64,000 nucleotides of DNA, from the sequence record OR352954; one strand, written 5' to 3'. Below, one piece after another: positions 31,945 through 59,072 of this stretch. Each line of letters starts with the position of its first letter. Position 1 is the stretch's first letter. The stretch is from Escherichia phage AV124. Made by a program: the position numbers and the translations under genes. Under the pieces are notes generated by a model that saw only the letters and a program-made list of their open reading frames with translations, had not been told where the DNA came from and ran no database searches.

Positions 31945-33200
31945 TGCAAGATAAGAAGATCTATTTGGTTGGTGGAGCCGTAAGGGACTCCTTGCTCGGT
32001 AGGCCCGTGCATGACAAGGACTATGTTTGTGTCGGGTACACACACGAAGAGATGATCGCCGCCGGATTTACACAGGTTGGTGCAAATTTTGCAGTATACC
32101 TTCATCCTGAAACCAAAGAAGAATACGCACTGGCCCGTACTGAGCGCAAAACGGGTGAGGGCCATACTGGCTTTGAGACCTTCTTCAGCCCGGATGTAAC
32201 TCTGGAAGAGGATTTATCGCGTCGTGACCTGACGATCAATGCGATGGCTAAAGACATGGAAACAGGATTTATCATTGATCCGTTCAACGGTATGCATGAC
32301 CTGTGCAACAGGACTCTTCGTCATACCACTTCGGCATTCATGGATGACCCATTACGTATCCTGCGACTTTTCCGATTCAAGGCCCAGCTGGGTGATGGTT
32401 GGACTGTCGATCATGAGACATATAGTCTCGCTTACAACAACCGTTACCGCCTGGCAGAAATTAGCCCAGAACGCAAATGGAAGGAGATGGAGAAAGCTCT
32501 TAATTCCAACAACTTTATGAGTTATGCTTACGAAATGGCCGTGCTTGGTGAACTCCCAGAGCTAGATGCCCTTCATGGTGTAGAGCAACCACCTGAGCAT
32601 CATCCAGAGGGTGATGCCTTCATCCACACCCTGATGTGCCTGGAGCAGGCAGACAAAACCTTTTGCTCTCCTCAGGTGAAATTTGCGGTGCTGTGCCATG
32701 ACTTTGGAAAGGCGATCACTTTCCGTAAGTACGGTAATCTCCTCGGTCATGAAGAAGCTGGTCTTGATCCTGTGCGGACGCTGTGCAGTCGAATTCGAGT
32801 TCCTAACGAATTCAGGGATATTGCACTGTACGTGACAGAGCACCATACTCGTGTGCATTGCATTTTGGGCCGTGGGAATAATAAAGGAATCAAGCCACGT
32901 TCCATGATGAAGCTTTTCGAAGCCGCAGGTAACGTGGCTAGTCAGAAGACACAGGACAAGGTGTTTGCCTTAGCAGACGCTTGTTTCTGCGATGCCCGTG
33001 GTCGTGGTGCCACGCACGCAGATAAGGAATACCCGCAAGGAAAAATTCTCCTTGATGCTTTCGATGCGGTTGTAAATACGGACAGCAAGGCGGTATCTTC
33101 AGCAATGCTGGAGAAAGGAAAAAGCGGCAAGGAGATCGGTGAGGCGATCCGTGTTGCACGTATTGATGCAATTCGTAATGTCCTTAAGGAGAGATCATGA
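31938..33200 (+). CDS. CCA tRNA nucleotidyltransferase (Pol-beta head + HD domain)
   Basis: N-terminal GGAVRDSLLGRPVHDKDYV motif; C-terminal HD-type region. Confidence 0.75.
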   Translation: MVMQDKKIYLVGGAVRDSLLGRPVHDKDYVCVGYTHEEMIAAGFTQVGANFAVYLHPETKEEYALARTERKTGEGHTGFETFFSPDVTLEEDLSRRDLTINAMAKDMETGFIIDPFNGMHDLCNRTLRHTTSAFMDDPLRILRLFRFKAQLGDGWTVDHETYSLAYNNRYRLAEISPERKWKEMEKALNSNNFMSYAYEMAVLGELPELDALHGVEQPPEHHPEGDAFIHTLMCLEQADKTFCSPQVKFAVLCHDFGKAITFRKYGNLLGHEEAGLDPVRTLCSRIRVPNEFRDIALYVTEHHTRVHCILGRGNNKGIKPRSMMKLFEAAGNVASQKTQDKVFALADACFCDARGRGATHADKEYPQGKILLDAFDAVVNTDSKAVSSAMLEKGKSGKEIGEAIRVARIDAIRNVLKERS

Positions 33201-42029: not shown

Positions 42030-43855
42030 CGCCAAATCTCCTGAAGCGGGAGGATACAATCACCACCCCTGCGTGAAAGGTTGCACATCCCATTAACACA
42101 CATAATATGAAGGGTCTCCCCGATATGTCGATAAAACACCATTTCATAAACACATTGCCGTAACGTGTCGATGCCATAAACATTACGGTGCGAAGCACTT
42201 TGCCAAAGGCAAAAACCTCCGGTGCTATAAATATATCGCCTTGGGCGATTAGCCAGAGGCTAACCCGTACACGGGTAAATATATCGCGTAAACAGGCCCC
42301 TGTTTTCCCCGTATAACCACCCCTTCCCCCCGTGGGGAAATCAAAACATACCCCCTGCCGAAAATATCACTTGCCGAAAAATATCATGGCTTGGTCCTTG
42401 GGTAAAAAATATTGTATTCGCACCATCTGCGGTGTTAGACGGACAGCTCCGGGCGTCAACTATCTTTACGGATCTTTACAAAATATCATGGGCAAGGTCG
42501 ATCCGGTTCCCGGTTCCTCGGGGCCTCTTCAGGCATGATAGTTACTTGCCGAAACTAATAATAATTGGGTGTGTCAGATAGCAAGCTTATGGTTTGCCAG
42601 CTTAGAGCACGATTTGCTATTGACTTGTTTATATTTATATGAATTACACCATTTAACATAAAACACGTTATACGCACTGACCAACAACGCATAGCAGACT
42701 AATAATGCCCCAATGTTACCAGTGTGACGCATAGGACAGCCGCTTCAGGTCATTACATGGTGTGACTGTTACTGTGGTGATAGTTTCATATGTGATTATT
42801 CATGTTTTAGGGTTGTTTTGTGAATGAGACGACGAATGAGAATCATTATTATTTCGATTTCGAATTCAATTTCGAAATGAGAATCATTCCGCAAATATAA
42901 ATATTTTGTAAATTTATAAATAAAAGCTTGACGAGGGAAGAGAATCGTGTTTAGCAATACATACTCTTTGAGCATCATTATCATTTGCGACTAATTCCCA
43001 TAAACCCTTGCTACGCAAGGGATTGATAGATATTTTCGATAATAAAAACACTTGACACTTCAGATAAAATCATGCTCAAAAACAAGCCTTTTCTCATAAG
43101 ATACGATCATCATTCTAATGGTTTGTCAACCATTAAACACGAATTAATTTGATTAAACTGCTAATTGTTTACAGGGTTTACTATCATCAGCGACACAATA
43201 ACACAATGCCCTTCGGGTTGTTTTCGCCACGGAAAACAATGTCCAGATTGACCAAAGGGGTTTTGTGAATCCCCTTTATCTGGACACAATAACACTAGGG
43301 CGATCAACGATAGTTGATCGGTGTTATCGTGGCGATGTGATAAAGTTTCATTGCTAATCATTACAGATGTAATGATAATATACTGTGATAATTTCGTCCT
43401 TGATCGTAGCGTCTACGAGCCACGATAACGCGAACGAGAATGCGATTTGTTCGCATTTGAGTTACCCTAGTGTTATTGTGTCGCTCGCTCCGCTCGCGCC
43501 ACTCCCCACGATTCGCGAACGAGAAATTTTATTGACAGAAAATGATTTCTATGCTCATAAAAAGCCAGTTCACACAATGAGTTAGATGAGGAAAGTTATC
43601 ATTATAGTGATTTATGCTCATATTCACTTCCAGTGCATAGAAATTCATGATTTATTCAGTTAATAACATGCGTTATTAATTAGGTGGGGTTGTGGGGTGA
43701 AAAGCCAGGACCGACACACAATTAAACGCAATATAAAGCGTTTTGAGCGTGGTTATCGGTTACCCTCATCATGGTATGTCTTGTGTTAGATCTCAATTAT
43801 GCACTTTTTTGCATAGCGGCGGGGCCGTGGTGTGGGTTGTTTATGGTGTGGATCT
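42030..43855. other. ~1.9-kb non-coding, palindrome- and repeat-rich region (candidate origin / regulatory region)
   Basis: No convincing ORF; numerous direct repeats, palindromes and nested inverted repeats. Confidence 0.5.
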
Positions 43856-54531: not shown

Positions 54532-55174
54532 GCTGAGAATCCTTTTTATCTTCTTTTGTTTTGGCGGCTGCATCCAACTCTTCAGTATATTTCTTGATTT
54601 GAGCATCAAGATACTTAATGGTGCTATCAGCCAGTTGTTGTGTACGTGGTGACTCAACCACATTCTGACCTACATACGCTGCCAGCATCTTATAGGCCGT
54701 CTCTTTCTGCGGCATAAAGTTAGCGTACAGGATACCTAGGAAACATATAACCATGCCAAAGACTGCGATCTTACGTGGACCTTTGGTAACATCCTTTACC
54801 ACAACAGGTGTTGTTGATTGGCCTTCCTTCCGGGTTACTTTGTAGATTGTGGACTGCTTAATATCGTTGCTGGAGACCCTTCCATTCGGCAAGCGAACTC
54901 GAAGCGTATTATCACTGTTCCATACCGTAACGATTTCAATCGTATCCCCGGCCTTACATCCATTCCAGTCTTGATTAAGAATCAGGTTTTCACCTTCGAA
55001 GAACTGATACCCTAAGGCTGTACCATTCTTCTCAAGATCTTCATAAATCTTCTGACCGAAATAGCAACCGGCGTATGCGAGAGCAGAGATAAGCATCAGA
55101 GCAACCCAACCACCATAATTACCGTCTGTAGTCAGAACATCAATTACATAAATCAGAAAAGGCCATGAACCCAT
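54524..55174 (-). CDS. membrane protein
   Basis: N-terminal and central TM-like helices. Confidence 0.45.
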   Translation of the reverse strand: MGSWPFLIYVIDVLTTDGNYGGWVALMLISALAYAGCYFGQKIYEDLEKNGTALGYQFFEGENLILNQDWNGCKAGDTIEIVTVWNSDNTLRVRLPNGRVSSNDIKQSTIYKVTRKEGQSTTPVVVKDVTKGPRKIAVFGMVICFLGILYANFMPQKETAYKMLAAYVGQNVVESPRTQQLADSTIKYLDAQIKKYTEELDAAAKTKEDKKDSQHD

Positions 55175-55199
55175 TTTGTAATCTCCTCTTAGGATAACT

Positions 55200-55460
55200 T
55201 TAATTAAGTGTTAAATTTCCAACAGTTTCAATGAAGCCGAAGGGCATAGAGAATACCTTCACCATATAAATCTTGTCCTTACCATCTTCATAGTAAGGCA
55301 CAACTACAACATCATCAGCTCCCAGAGGAAGCATAGTCATAATCATACCAGAATCTACAACGTATTCAAGCACAGCTTCTTTGGTGGCAGGAATTTCTTT
55401 CTCTGTTTGTTTGCTTTCCAACAGGCCACCACGGTGTTGACGAATACGGATCGTTTTCAT
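55200..55460 (-). CDS. hypothetical protein
   Basis: ORF. Confidence 0.45.
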   Translation of the reverse strand: MKTIRIRQHRGGLLESKQTEKEIPATKEAVLEYVVDSGMIMTMLPLGADDVVVVPYYEDGKDKIYMVKVFSMPFGFIETVGNLTLN

Positions 55461-55668
55461 TTGTTGTCGGCCTCGCGCCGCCCCCAGTTAAGTCGTTCAT
55501 AAGATTCACTGTCGCCCATGCCTCCATCACATAAGCGAACAAGTTCGCACTTCCACACACATCTAACACCCGTAAACGGGTTAGCTCATGGCTAATCCAC
55601 TTGTGGATGACTGAAGTGATGAATCACTTCCTCTTGAAACTAACTATACACTAACTAAACCATAGATC

Positions 55669-55780
55669 AAGATCTTTTTATAAAGATCTATGTTTTATGT
55701 TTTTAAGATCTTATGTGTATTATTTTATATATGTATTCATGTGCAAAATTTGCATGACACGAGACGCAAAATTTGCATCA
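55669..55780. promoter_or_regulatory. operator-like palindromes (AGATCTTT-N4-AAAGATCT; two copies of TGCAAAATTTGCA)
   Basis: Palindromes between leftward genes, adjacent to wHTH protein gene. Confidence 0.4.
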
Positions 55781-56056
55781 CAAGACGGTGTACTCATACG
55801 TACTCATCCCTCTGCGTTCTGTAGATAGATACCCTAGTGCCACGAGGTTTTTTATGGATGTACTGATTGACCTTTCAGACACACCCGTAGCTTCACTAAT
55901 CGTTTTATAACTAGCAAAGTATTTCTTCCCTTTTGTCTCTAAGTATCCTGCCTTGTACTTTATGTGGAGCAGGACACGAAGATCTGTGCATGACAGGTTC
56001 TTATCATGCAGCTCTTTTTCGTCACAAGCTACCCACTTCTCACTCTTTTTTGGCAT
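55778..56056 (-). CDS. winged-helix DNA-binding protein
   Basis: ASYKTISEATGVSERSISTSIKNLVALGYL HTH signature. Confidence 0.45.
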   Translation of the reverse strand: MPKKSEKWVACDEKELHDKNLSCTDLRVLLHIKYKAGYLETKGKKYFASYKTISEATGVSERSISTSIKNLVALGYLSTERRGMSTYEYTVL

Positions 56057-56450
56057 CCAAGTATTTCTCCAAATGAGTGAGTACAACCCCTTGGGCATAC
56101 TCTTGAGATGCATCATTGTGGTGAAGAACAGCCAGATCACATCCAAGTTTGTGCAAACTCCTCTCGAATGGAGACAAGTGTGTCATCATAACTTCGACCA
56201 GACTAAGCTCTTCTTCTGTGATGTGGAGGGGATCATCCGTGAAATCCCTGGAGATGAGAATCTCTCTCTCACCTCCTTCTCCGTGACCATAGACCTCGAC
56301 AATCCTCCTGTTACAGAAAATTTCGTACTGATAGCCGTTCCAATCTTGACCGTCTTGGGCTTCAAAGTTCACAATGAGGCAACAACCAAGCCCCAACAAG
56401 AGTACCTGGAAATCCAAATTGTGAACAATTTTTTTATTTAAAGTGTTCAT
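56040..56450 (-). CDS. hypothetical protein
   Basis: ORF; co-oriented with neighbours. Confidence 0.4.
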   Translation of the reverse strand: MNTLNKKIVHNLDFQVLLLGLGCCLIVNFEAQDGQDWNGYQYEIFCNRRIVEVYGHGEGGEREILISRDFTDDPLHITEEELSLVEVMMTHLSPFERSLHKLGCDLAVLHHNDASQEYAQGVVLTHLEKYLDAKKE

Positions 56451-57873
56451 CTAAGTCCACAGCTTTTCCAAATGGTGGAATCCAACCCTTGCGCCCACCG
56501 CAGATAACCCAGAGAGTGTTGTACTTACGCCCCCAGCTTGAGCCACGATGTCTCAGGTCCTCTATGTAACCATCTGTGAAGATTATAACCTCTTTTGCCT
56601 TAGGAATAAACTCATCGATGTACTCAAAAGCACATGCAGCAGTTGTCCCACCAGTCGATGTAACTCTGTAATCCAGAATTTCCTTTATGTTATCCTGTGT
56701 GTACACGTTGACGTTGCCAACTTGGGTTGACCAACAGAACAATGTGATACGGAAACATTGGTACAGGGTGCTCAAAGCGATTATCTCATTGAAGATACGT
56801 GTCATTGTTTGACGAGAGATAGAACCTGAAACGTCAAAACCGATTACAATATCAACAGTCTCTGTTCTTTTTCTGCCAGGCATAACCATGAACTGTTTCT
56901 TAGTTAGAGCGCCGTGATCACGAAGGACTTTTGTCATTCCTCCTGATCGACGACCTAAGACCCGATAAGTACGGTCTGATTTAACACGAGAAATCATTCG
57001 CTGCTTAATGATTTGCAGGTAATTAATCTTCGGTTTACCTTTTTGTGCGATTAATTCTCTGGCTTCTTTTGGCCCTTCACCACCTGCGGCTTTCATAGCA
57101 GCGTCAATCATGTCCTCAGACCAAGACATATCCTCATCTTCCTGATCAGCAGACTTCTGTGGGTGTGGGTCCGTATACCCCAGGATGTCAAGGTCTTTAT
57201 CATAATCCCCTATGTGCGCTCCCAGCGGCTTACCTTCACCGTCACCAATCTCTTCCGGTAGTAGAGCATAAATCTCTTCAGCCGTTTTTCCCTCATATTG
57301 GTAATCGCAATAACAGTAAGCAAGGAAACCAAATTCTTTTGACTTATCAAACACTTGTCGATGAGTGAACCATTTCAAACTCTCGGCTTTCTGGCCCAAC
57401 TCCTTGACTAGGTCAGTATTGATATAGTGATCAGCGGCGATGTTGAAACGTTTGCGATCAAATGTTTTCCCACGAGACATGTGGTCGTTGGTGACATGGC
57501 GGACCTCATGCATCATGATGAATACAATTTCTTTCATGGTCTTTTGACGATAAAATACATTGATGTACTCTTTGTAATCATCTTTTTGCTGTTGTGTCAT
57601 CATCGGATGCTTGTCAATACGAGCAAAGACTTTTTTCTTGCGATCAGCAGGCATACCCATAATGAACTCTGGGTTAAAGTATAGATTGCGATGATCAGTT
57701 GCTGCGGTTGGAAGCCATGCACAGTCAACTATCAGCGGCATACCGCTTAATAATGTCCCATAGAATGGTCGATTAGTAAGTAAAGCGATGCGGGCAGACT
57801 GAACTCTCTTCAGTGCTTCATCAGCCAGTTCCATAATGCTTTCTTTTTCATCAGTATACATTCTTATCTCCAA
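56434..57873 (-). CDS. HExxH metallopeptidase-like + von Willebrand factor A domain protein
   Basis: HEVRH motif in N-terminal half; vWA MIDAS VIGFDVSGSIS in C-terminal half. Confidence 0.55.
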   Translation of the reverse strand: MEIRMYTDEKESIMELADEALKRVQSARIALLTNRPFYGTLLSGMPLIVDCAWLPTAATDHRNLYFNPEFIMGMPADRKKKVFARIDKHPMMTQQQKDDYKEYINVFYRQKTMKEIVFIMMHEVRHVTNDHMSRGKTFDRKRFNIAADHYINTDLVKELGQKAESLKWFTHRQVFDKSKEFGFLAYCYCDYQYEGKTAEEIYALLPEEIGDGEGKPLGAHIGDYDKDLDILGYTDPHPQKSADQEDEDMSWSEDMIDAAMKAAGGEGPKEARELIAQKGKPKINYLQIIKQRMISRVKSDRTYRVLGRRSGGMTKVLRDHGALTKKQFMVMPGRKRTETVDIVIGFDVSGSISRQTMTRIFNEIIALSTLYQCFRITLFCWSTQVGNVNVYTQDNIKEILDYRVTSTGGTTAACAFEYIDEFIPKAKEVIIFTDGYIEDLRHRGSSWGRKYNTLWVICGGRKGWIPPFGKAVDLDEHFK

Positions 57874-57910: not shown

Positions 57911-58171
57911 TTAATTCATCACCCTTTGCAATGCAATTTGGGGTAAAAATTCATCTATCCCCTCAACCCTGAAACCCCACGCTAATTGTGGACCAGGCGC
58001 TCCCGGAAGGTGAGGAACAGCAAACAAGACGATCCCATCAATAGCTCCGCGAATCGCGTTCTCTGTGAAAGTCTCTACCAGATCCCCGAAATTAAGACCC
58101 GGCCTGAAGCCAGCATTCAGCATTTTTTGCTCTGGCGCGGATGCAGGCCTGCCCAAGATATCTTCGTACAT
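57911..58171 (-). CDS. hypothetical protein
   Basis: ORF. Confidence 0.4.
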   Translation of the reverse strand: MYEDILGRPASAPEQKMLNAGFRPGLNFGDLVETFTENAIRGAIDGIVLFAVPHLPGAPGPQLAWGFRVEGIDEFLPQIALQRVMN

Positions 58172-59037
58172 TACACCACCTTGTTGAGCATTGCTGCAAC
58201 TTTTGGCAGGCTCAGGCCCGTCTGGATCATCAGTTGGGTCATCGCAGTTTCCATTTTCTTGGAGACAATGATGAAATTATCTTTGGCAAAGCCAATGTTC
58301 AGATCCAGAATCAGAATAGATTTCGGTTCTTCAGTTAATTTTTCACCAGATAAGGCACAGGTGTTGCGAATGTATCGTGCCTTAAATTGCGAATAGGTGA
58401 CCGATACAGACATTCCAGCCTCGTGGAAGGTGTTGCAGTAACGGGCATACGCCAATGCAACAGAGACGTCCTCAGGCAACTTCTGGGCCTCTTTCTGAGC
58501 ACTTGTCTCTTCCGCCGCAGGTTTTTGGTTGTGAACATGTTCTTCGGCATTATCCATAGCGTTCTGCATTGTCTCTTCAGTATTCATTTCGTTCTCCTGT
58601 TGTGGGATATATTTGGTTTTCAGTTTTTCAAGGTGGTCTTTGGACATGTTCAACATCATGGCCTTTACTATTTCGCGATCTAAAGGATCTTGAATCAGTA
58701 TAGATGTTGTCTTGTCAACTAAACGGTCCTTAAGTTGGTTTGCGCGAAGCATAACCACACAGACGTTTCCCCGGACATACCCTTTCGAGTCATCGATTCT
58801 CTCTATAGACGGATACCTTGGGTTAGCTTCCTCACCATCATTCGCGATGTTGGTACTGAAAGGTAGCCCCGTGTAATCACAAGAGCCGTGGCCCAAAAGC
58901 TTGAATCCGAGCATACGCATATCTTGCATTGTTAAATCACAGTCAAGGCCCCGTTTTCGAGCATTCAACTTCTTATGCTTCAAACGATTCCTCAACTTTT
59001 CCACTTCTTCAGGTGTAAACTCTTGTAATACAGACAT
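58171..59037 (-). CDS. HNH-like endonuclease-related protein
   Basis: CDYTGLPF...PSIERID...GYVRGNVCVV..ANQLK with a second degenerate copy. Confidence 0.4.
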   Translation of the reverse strand: MSVLQEFTPEEVEKLRNRLKHKKLNARKRGLDCDLTMQDMRMLGFKLLGHGSCDYTGLPFSTNIANDGEEANPRYPSIERIDDSKGYVRGNVCVVMLRANQLKDRLVDKTTSILIQDPLDREIVKAMMLNMSKDHLEKLKTKYIPQQENEMNTEETMQNAMDNAEEHVHNQKPAAEETSAQKEAQKLPEDVSVALAYARYCNTFHEAGMSVSVTYSQFKARYIRNTCALSGEKLTEEPKSILILDLNIGFAKDNFIIVSKKMETAMTQLMIQTGLSLPKVAAMLNKVV

Positions 59038-59072
59038 TTCTAACTCCTTGGGTCTTGCCCGTTCTTAGTAAG

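Follow-up and report, generated by a model that had tools for sequence, protein, structure and literature searches.

What does a small winged-helix gene do that ends directly on two tandem palindromes, next to an easily melted piece of duplex, in a virulent phage? The locus that raises this question lies in Escherichia phage AV124 (sequence record OR352954), of which a stretch of 64,000 nucleotides (nt), here called the window, was analysed; coordinates are window positions unless another sequence is named. Over 2 kb around the locus, the DNA shares 99.3% identity with Raoultella phage Ro1 and 92-96% with ~30 Klebsiella and Proteus phages of the genus Mydovirus. These are rV5-like virulent myoviruses of ~145 kb and belong to the Vequintavirinae, a group that includes Salmonella phage PVP-SE1 and many Klebsiella phages studied for therapy. 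A sequence-only reading of the stretch had described operator-like palindromes beside a regulator gene and had proposed a local repressor-operator switch. We tentatively read the locus as an iteron-type origin-of-replication module with a stand-alone binder, a serious possibility in our view, because it joins an initiator-like winged-helix binder, palindromic tandem sites spaced by about two turns of the helix, an adjoining melt-prone tract, nearby transcription and exchangeable cassettes.

Two tandem palindromes abut a winged-helix gene

All genes in this region are transcribed leftward. An early operon closes with the gene for a helix-turn-helix (HTH) protein of 92 amino acids (aa), and the locus fills the gap up to the following gene, the start codon of which ends at 55460. 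Read along the transcript, the stop codon of the HTH gene is followed by two palindromes, by ~70 nt of 85% A+T with three AGATCT hexamers, by a promoter (P1) and by a 175-nt leader. The features are as follows.

55778-56056, minus strand: HTH gene (open reading frame) for a 92-aa stand-alone winged-helix protein of the HTH_36 family; stop codon 55778-55780
55765-55777, no strand: candidate iteron 1, CGCAAAATTTGCA (minus strand reads TGCAAATTTTGCG), abutting the HTH stop codon; part of repeat family D3 and of inverted repeat I4
55742-55754, no strand: candidate iteron 2, perfect palindrome of 13 base pairs (bp), TGCAAAATTTGCA, 23 bp start to start from iteron 1
55701-56075, no strand: putative exchangeable cassette of HTH gene, both iterons and ~40 nt of the AT tract, delimited by the identity drop against phage Mydo
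55676-55741, no strand: AT-rich tract, 85% A+T, candidate DNA-unwinding element (from nearest-neighbour energies) and upstream region of P1
55664-55711, no strand: GATC cluster, AGATCT at 55670-55675, 55684-55689 and 55706-55711 plus GATC at 55665-55668 in the -35 hexamer
55643-55670, minus strand: promoter P1 from a consensus scan, TTGATC (55670-55665), 16-nt spacer, TATAGT (55648-55643); predicted start near 55636-55635
55461-55635, minus strand: conserved leader of the downstream operon from alignments, 175 nt untranslated, with the 5' hairpin GAAGTGA-TTCA-TCACTTC at 55613-55630

The elements pointed out by the sequence-only reading are all present, namely the AGATCT element at 55670-55689 and the sites at 55742-55754 and 55765-55777, 23 bp apart. 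The first of the two 13-bp palindromes TGCAAAWTTTGCR begins at the base after the stop codon of the HTH gene. A direct-repeat match of 13/13 at a spacing of 21-25 bp within 80 nt was found in 0.04% of random genome pieces (P=0.0004). Lone palindromes are unremarkable, the window holding 22 perfect inverted repeats with 8-nt arms (8.3 +/- 4.1 in shuffled sequence) and 18 perfect 6-N-6 palindromes (15.4 +/- 3.7 in shuffled sequence). The site pair is unique in the genome of Ro1, where the other matches, with one mismatch, are single sites within coding regions, and Erwinia phage Hena1 likewise has its own, different pair only once in the genome. With a length of 13-14 bp and half-sites ~9 bp apart, the palindromic sites would fit a dimer.

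A third exact copy, TGCAAATTTTGCA, lies at 32080-32092 within the gene for a CCA-adding enzyme; it is probably a chance occurrence, as it is absent from Ro1 even when two mismatches are allowed. We rejected a role of the protein as a global regulator on the same grounds, the 13-mer being unique to the locus in Ro1 and the extra copy of the window being absent there.

Protein and sites change together and are exchanged as a cassette

Translated searches detected the protein in 58 phage records. The variant of the window (class A, at least 90% identity) is present in 24 of them, covering part of Mydovirus and the PVP-SE1 group of Seunavirus, and both TGCAAA sites were found in all 24; in the other 34 records the DNA similarity ends just short of the sites. 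The expectation that the palindromes are conserved in relatives is thus borne out for the TGCAAA pair and fails for the AGATCT palindrome, both arms of which occur in some Mydoviruses only. Its distal arm is conserved and its promoter-proximal arm is lost in Seunaviruses, so this element is not an operator-like dyad.

Protein variant and site sequence change together in at least eight specificity classes. The other protein variants are 28-40% identical to that of the window and are accompanied by different paired sites in the same register and with the same 23-bp spacing, such as a GGWCAY-NN-RTGWCC pair in Mydo, KE22, FENT2 and SalP219 and a TGACAAAAACG pair in 4MG, GAP31 and SPLA5a. Erwinia phages of the genus Henunavirus carry TGACAAAWTTGTCA and TGACAMAAATGTCC 22 bp apart, the first of which contains the stop codon. 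Four metagenomic homologues (26-52% identity) have repeats of their own, with two copies at 24 bp in two cases, three copies at 22-23 bp in one and four copies at 22, 23 and 32 bp in another, the four-copy array being followed by ~110 nt of AT-rich repeats. Across the homologous loci with this plan (Mydo-, Seuna- and Henunavirus and metagenome contigs), two to six tandem sites at 22-24 bp lie 0-4 nt past the stop codon, overlap it or fall in the last codons, and 8 of 15 loci reach a direct-repeat score of 12-13 of 13 (P<=0.0006 each). One metagenomic relative (L015 608-1425, L016 75-892) carries tandem initiator-type winged-helix genes of 93 and 131 aa, then four iterons and ~110 nt of AT-rich DNA with three copies of ACTAAATAGAT.

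The limits of the exchanged unit become visible in the comparison with phage Mydo of the same genus, to which the window is 87-100% identical on the flanks and 27-60% identical from 56075 to 55701. The Seunavirus PVP-SE1 has the same cassette, with a protein 91% identical to that of the window, and the laboratory recombinants vB_Kpn_K54_rec1-6 differ at the cassette, rec3 being of the Mydo type and the rest of the window type. As the alignments indicate, gene and sites move jointly as a specificity cassette of ~375 bp, both within and between genera.

In some phages, though not in the window, a gene with a weak T5orf172/MUG113 (GIY-YIG-like) match lies directly upstream of the HTH gene, as in the following three.

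L003 1901-2527: T5orf172/MUG113-like gene, gp214 of PVP-SE1
L010 909-1535: T5orf172/MUG113-like gene of VLCpiM5a
L021 4384-4914: T5orf172/MUG113-like gene of SNUABM_01

A mobile endonuclease beside the HTH gene could drive the exchange of HTH-iteron cassettes.

The sites alone recover members of the protein family

We further scanned the viral contigs of IMG/VR for the DNA motif alone (GCAAAWTTTGC-N12-GCAAAWTTTGC). The scan returned 11 matches, consisting of 5 known relatives and 6 unrelated contigs that represent four distinct loci, and in all 6 unrelated contigs an open reading frame matching the family profile touches the array. One of these genes (L041) encodes 101 aa and is followed by two sites 2 nt past its stop codon. 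On a 188-kb contig (L035), the last codons of a 120-aa gene open a run of six sites with spacings of 32, 23, 23, 23 and 23, which is followed by ~70 nt of nearly pure A+T that form the least stable DNA of that locus. L031 and L037 encode a full-length replication initiation protein of 234 aa (phrog_270, E=8e-39), the N-terminus of which is of the HTH_36 type and the C-terminus primosomal-like, and three sites lie within the linker-coding part of the initiator gene, as in lambda O. Finally, L038 and L039 encode a RepA_N protein (E=3e-23) and carry three to four sites between two perfect DnaA boxes. The recognition helices are alike, reading SERSISTSI in the window, SERSYTSAI in L035 and SLRSMTTIM in L038.

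Since protein variant and site co-vary and the motif-only scan recovers family members, the TGCAAAWTTTGCR pair is very likely the cognate site of the adjoining winged-helix protein, and we regard the predicted pairing as real with good confidence.

The sites adjoin the least stable DNA of the genome

When duplexes of 60, 80 and 100 bp are ranked by nearest-neighbour energies, the AT-rich tract next to the sites comes out as the least stable, both in the window and in the complete 145.8-kb genome of Ro1. In Hena1, which belongs to another genus, has other iterons and a G+C content of 48%, the homologous tract ranks as least stable among pieces of 40, 60 and 80 bp, and in coliphage 4MG it does so among pieces of 40 and 60 bp; the three genomes represent three genera.

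The tract also overlaps the GATC cluster. The sequence AGATCTTT-ttat-AAAGATCT at 55670-55689 corresponds to the first two AGATCT hexamers and lies directly upstream of the -35 hexamer. Three AGATCT within 42 bp are rare, compared with 44 in the entire Ro1 genome, and AGATCT pairs or a GATC cluster recur at the same place in the distant relatives L014, L018 and Henunavirus. Ro1 encodes a DpnIIA-like GATC methylase (gp111). The density of GATC as such was dropped as an argument: four in 50 bp is the maximum of the genome, yet it is reached in 60% of random placements. The octamer AAGATCTT, two copies of which fall in this region, was observed nine times in the window compared with 1.9 expected from shuffles (positions 4, 367, 2414, 7691, 15505, 50332, 55034, 55669 and 55705).

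The 92-aa protein resembles the DNA-binding part of initiators

The small protein with an HTH signature that the sequence-only reading had noticed was confirmed by a Pfam match to HTH_36 (PF13730; 42.5 bits, E=5.8e-11, residues 20-77), which exceeds the gathering cut-off of 25, and by an AlphaFold model of a winged helix (predicted local distance difference test, pLDDT, 82.6) with a single domain spanning residues 13-91. Pfam also gave a weak DnaD_N match and a MarR_2 match under the cut-off, and Phage_rep_O was not matched at E<=0.01. Among the PHROG matches is phrog_8102, 'replication initiation protein' (E=2e-30), of which only positions 12-105 of 337 are covered. Initiators, O-like proteins and DnaD-like proteins or helicase loaders make up 8 of the 12 PHROG matches, with the match confined to their DNA-binding part, and one of the 12 families is a regulator family. 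A sequence search of the PDB with the protein gave no match. A word-index search for homologues returned three near-identical proteins only, and an exhaustive search found 15, mostly long multi-HTH proteins that were uninformative. The RefSeq name is already 'replication initiation protein', through transfer from PHROG. Judged by its profile match, the 92-aa protein is a member of HTH_36, while membership of the lambda O family is not demonstrable. HTH_36 has been reported in lambda-O-like proteins and in plasmid Rep proteins (PMC5509034; PMC3832669).

A possible iteron-type origin

The locus combines tandem repeats two helical turns apart, an adjoining initiator-related winged-helix gene and an AT-rich tract of low computed stability, all of which are traits of iteron-type origins. 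The 92-aa protein may correspond to the DNA-binding domain of the initiators of phages and plasmids, here existing as a protein of its own, and would bind the two palindromes, probably as one dimer per site. The resulting nucleoprotein complex would stand against the least stable duplex, the GATC-bearing AT-rich tract of 60-100 bp, and could help to open or mark it, so that the phage's own primase-helicase and polymerase could start there. Transcription may assist, both by read-through from the HTH operon and by the strong outward promoter P1 beyond the tract. Of these events, the binding, the stoichiometry of the dimer, the unwinding, the loading of a helicase and any part played by P1 are inferred.

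For rV5-like phages, a published skew analysis failed to locate an origin and only tracked transcription (PMC3606486). In our hands, too, cumulative GC skew turned at changes of transcription direction and not at the locus; it was discarded as an origin marker because it follows the direction of transcription. In the literature searched, we found no description of an origin, of iterons or of the 92-aa protein in Vequintavirinae, nor any account of the two sites, of the AT-rich DNA, of cassettes being exchanged or of the second module described below. What would be new here is a candidate iteron-type origin module in a virulent phage with a binder reduced to a stand-alone winged helix, a proposal that we make with some reserve.

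Among known systems, lambdoid phages carry initiator and iterons as exchangeable specificity pairs. The lambda origin further resembles the locus in its palindromic tandem iterons, four of which are spaced 20, 24 and 23 bp (23 bp here), in the AT-rich tract on one side and in its activation by nearby transcription. [quoted passage not shown] Unlike in lambda, the binder has 92 aa, no C-terminal helicase-loader domain and no detectable sequence similarity to O, the iterons number only two and lie after the stop codon instead of within the gene, and the phage is a 145-kb virulent myovirus with its own T7-like primase-helicase. The phrog_270 initiators (L031/L037) and the RepA_N proteins (L038/L039) share the 11-mer core GCAAAATTTGC, the phasing of 22-23 bp and an N-terminal winged helix matching the family profile. 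They differ in having C-terminal initiator or primosomal-like domains and in belonging to small temperate-type phages or plasmid-like elements, whereas the protein of the window consists of the DNA-binding domain alone.

In the primary origin of T7 and in oriF and oriG of T4, a strong promoter lies by an AT-rich unwinding region in a virulent phage with its own replisome, much as P1 lies by the candidate unwinding tract. They differ in that their AT tract follows the promoter, whereas the present one precedes P1 and follows the HTH operon, and in that they lack a protein dedicated to binding iterons. Iteron plasmids, with Rep initiators such as RepE, pi and TrfA, resemble the locus in their winged-helix binder, in direct repeats about two helical turns apart, in an adjoining unwinding element (a candidate one here) with short repeated motifs and often in Dam sites (PMC4980987). 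Their Rep proteins differ in having two winged-helix domains, and the number of iterons is usually 4-8, with DnaA boxes in addition; here there are one domain and two sites, and the only sequence resembling a DnaA box is an 8/9 match that is not conserved.

If the origin reading is true, a phage with its own replisome can make do with an initiator that has shrunk to the DNA-binding domain, and virulent phages swap the specificity of their origins as a cassette of ~375 bp, which bears on recombination, on the outcome of co-infections and on phage engineering. The locus is a precise and testable origin candidate, comprising a 92-aa protein, two 13-bp sites and a melting-prone tract of 60-100 bp. 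If the protein is instead a promoter regulator, the classes still form a clean natural set of orthogonal protein-site pairs.

A second, paralogous module

A six-frame profile scan detected exactly two genes of the family per genome. The second HTH_36 gene lies outside the window.

Ro1 73940-74534 (L012): second HTH_36 gene, gp149
Hena1 42740-43324 (L028): second HTH_36 gene, gp088
4MG 71216-71700 (L044): second HTH_36 gene, gp255

The paralogue was found in 73 phage records, including Avunavirus and Certrevirus. It adjoins a large divergent promoter region that is the second least stable DNA of each genome (in 4MG the least stable at 80-100 bp) and has two private tandem sites 23-24 bp apart, which abut the -35 hexamer of its own promoter; in Ro1 and Hena1, a third copy overlaps its ribosome-binding site. 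The AT/GATC block of the paralogue resembles in sequence the block beside P1 and has the same orientation to the sites, with local alignment scores of 45 against a null of 20.7 +/- 3.0 in Ro1 and of 60 against 18 +/- 2.9 in Hena1. It may be speculated that rV5-like phages possess two minimal origin modules that are paralogous to each other and occupy the two genome positions of lowest stability. Each would comprise a winged helix of the initiator type, two or three iterons of its own and, as a common part, an AT-rich/GATC block for unwinding by an outward promoter. The binder, lacking a helicase-loading domain, would then work directly with the T7-like primase-helicase, and cassettes exchanged between genera would amount to 'replicon types' in strictly lytic phages. 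This wider picture seems rather doubtful to us.

Promoter P1 and its leader

P1 is a sigma-70-type promoter that reads leftward, away from the sites, and no other promoter in the gap is conserved. When six phages of two genera are aligned, CTTGAT, GTTAGTG, TATAGT and the first 13 bases of the transcript show no variation. With near-consensus elements and an A/T-rich upstream region, P1 looks constitutive. The sites are centred ~112 and ~135 bp upstream of its start and overlap none of its elements. We rejected a second promoter overlapping iteron 2 (score 9/12), given that -10-like hexamers occur in all classes at no fixed distance to the site.

The leader is unusually conserved; it measures 123-178 nt in ten phages and has the invariant start AAGAGGAAGTGA and the blocks AGATGTGTGTGGAAGT and GGGGCGGCGCG. 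The stem of its hairpin is invariant and the loop variable, and indels disrupt every reading frame. A structured RNA in the leader was rejected on account of a weak consensus fold (-3.9 kcal/mol, one compensatory pair), and an Rfam scan of 55150-56100 (E<=1) gave two chance-level matches only. In addition, the leader of Mydoviruses alone contains an insert of ~45 nt (55560-55612) with the palindrome ATCCACAAGTGGAT and the hairpin AACCCGTTTACGGGT. One arm of ATCCACAAGTGGAT, TCATCCACA at 55602-55610 on the minus strand, matches the DnaA box at 8/9 positions; it is altered in Mydo and absent in Seunavirus.

Arguments against an origin, and a role in transcription

Several observations weigh against an origin of replication. 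The helicase-loading part of an initiator was not found: the 92 aa form one winged helix without a further domain, therefore nothing in the protein would recruit a helicase, and no partner was seen. A profile comparison of the family alignment with lambda O (hhalign) gave a probability of 0.4%. At the syntenic spot, neither HTH gene nor sites are present in Av-05, FFH2 and CR9 (Avunavirus, Vequintavirus and Certrevirus), and the locus is therefore no universal origin of the subfamily. The module sits in a host-takeover operon, 17-30 kb away from the genes for polymerase and primase-helicase. Moreover, duplex stability is a computed nearest-neighbour energy that is uncalibrated on a known phage origin, the AT tract coincides with the expected position of an UP element or of curved DNA of the strong promoter P1, and the second least stable region of each genome (Ro1, Hena1 and 4MG) is also a promoter region.

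Three further points against an origin speak at the same time for a local transcription factor that binds the palindromes and controls P1 as an upstream activator, as an architectural factor acting via bent AT-rich DNA or as a roadblock to read-through, with no role in replication. Firstly, the protein is small and has a single domain, and its Foldseek neighbours are generic winged helix-turn-helix proteins, mostly repressors and centromere binders (CodY-C, AspA, TubR, MarR, ArsR and BlaI). Secondly, the sites lie upstream of a strongly conserved sigma-70 promoter, and the distance from the stop codon to the start of the P1 transcript, and with it the spacing between the sites and that start, stays within 141-148 nt across ten phages, possibly a sign of coupling to transcription. 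Thirdly, with two sites abutting its own -35 hexamer and a third overlapping the ribosome-binding site, the paralogous module has a classical autoregulatory look. A terminator scan furthermore detected no intrinsic terminator between the HTH gene and P1, so a protein roadblock would have a task.

On the other hand, sites near -112 and -135 are too distant for occlusion and lie beyond the usual positions of class I activators, and P1 looks constitutive. The profile matches favour the DNA-binding domains of initiators over regulators, the same iteron motif accompanies full-length initiators and DnaA boxes, and the 4-6 direct repeats of relatives, followed by 70-110 nt of nearly pure A+T, are untypical of operators. 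MarR and ArsR repressors share the winged-helix fold (template modelling, TM, scores of 0.6-0.66) and palindromic sites with the locus, whereas the protein of the window has neither MarR dimerisation helices nor a ligand domain and its sites overlap no promoter element. The repressor-operator switch of the sequence-only reading is not supported: in addition to the distance from the P1 start and the lost AGATCT symmetry, site searches in the window and the Ro1 genome found no site at the promoter of the HTH operon itself. Overall, a purely transcriptional role seems possible but rather unlikely.

A real protein-site pair could also serve another purpose at the DNA level, either in a centromere-like or genome-organising complex or by titrating the initiator of a co-infecting rival. 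The fold neighbours AspA and TubR are centromere binders that coat tandem repeats, and competition during co-infection could explain the exchange of specificity cassettes within and between genera and in K54_rec1-6. A GIY-YIG-like T5orf172 gene stands beside the cassette in some phages. We consider such a role unlikely, as no partition nucleoside triphosphatase (NTPase) or tubulin gene was found among the neighbouring genes examined, a virulent phage has no obvious need for partition, and the constant proximity of the least stable DNA would be left unexplained.

That the palindromes act without any protein, as a 3' hairpin terminating or stabilising the HTH mRNA, is very improbable: although the site region of the window reaches a folding energy of -15.1 kcal/mol (z=-2.3 relative to shuffles) and SalP219 has a perfect 14-bp inverted repeat at this position, no U-tract follows the sites, the terminator scan is empty, three other classes fold like shuffles (z -0.9 to -1.4), several classes have direct non-palindromic repeats (TGACAAAAACG, GGGGTGATCTAA) that therefore cannot pair as RNA, and co-variation with the protein would have no explanation.

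Genomic surroundings

The early operon that ends with the HTH gene starts near 59040, with an Srd-like anti-sigma gene as its first and a VWA-metallopeptidase gene among its inner members. Neighbours of the locus are the VWA-metallopeptidase, gp030 and small membrane proteins; domain searches detected no replication domains in gp030 and the VWA-metallopeptidase. The first gene of the operon (58171-59037, minus strand) has matches to Srd-type anti-sigma, to sigma-decoy and also to HNH families. RefSeq names around this gene and around 56434-57873 (minus strand) look mis-transferred, with 'HNH endonuclease' on the VWA-metallopeptidase and 'tail protein' on gp030. In Hena1, the annotation includes direct terminal repeats of 519 bp at 1-519 and 148324-148842 (L028, L027).

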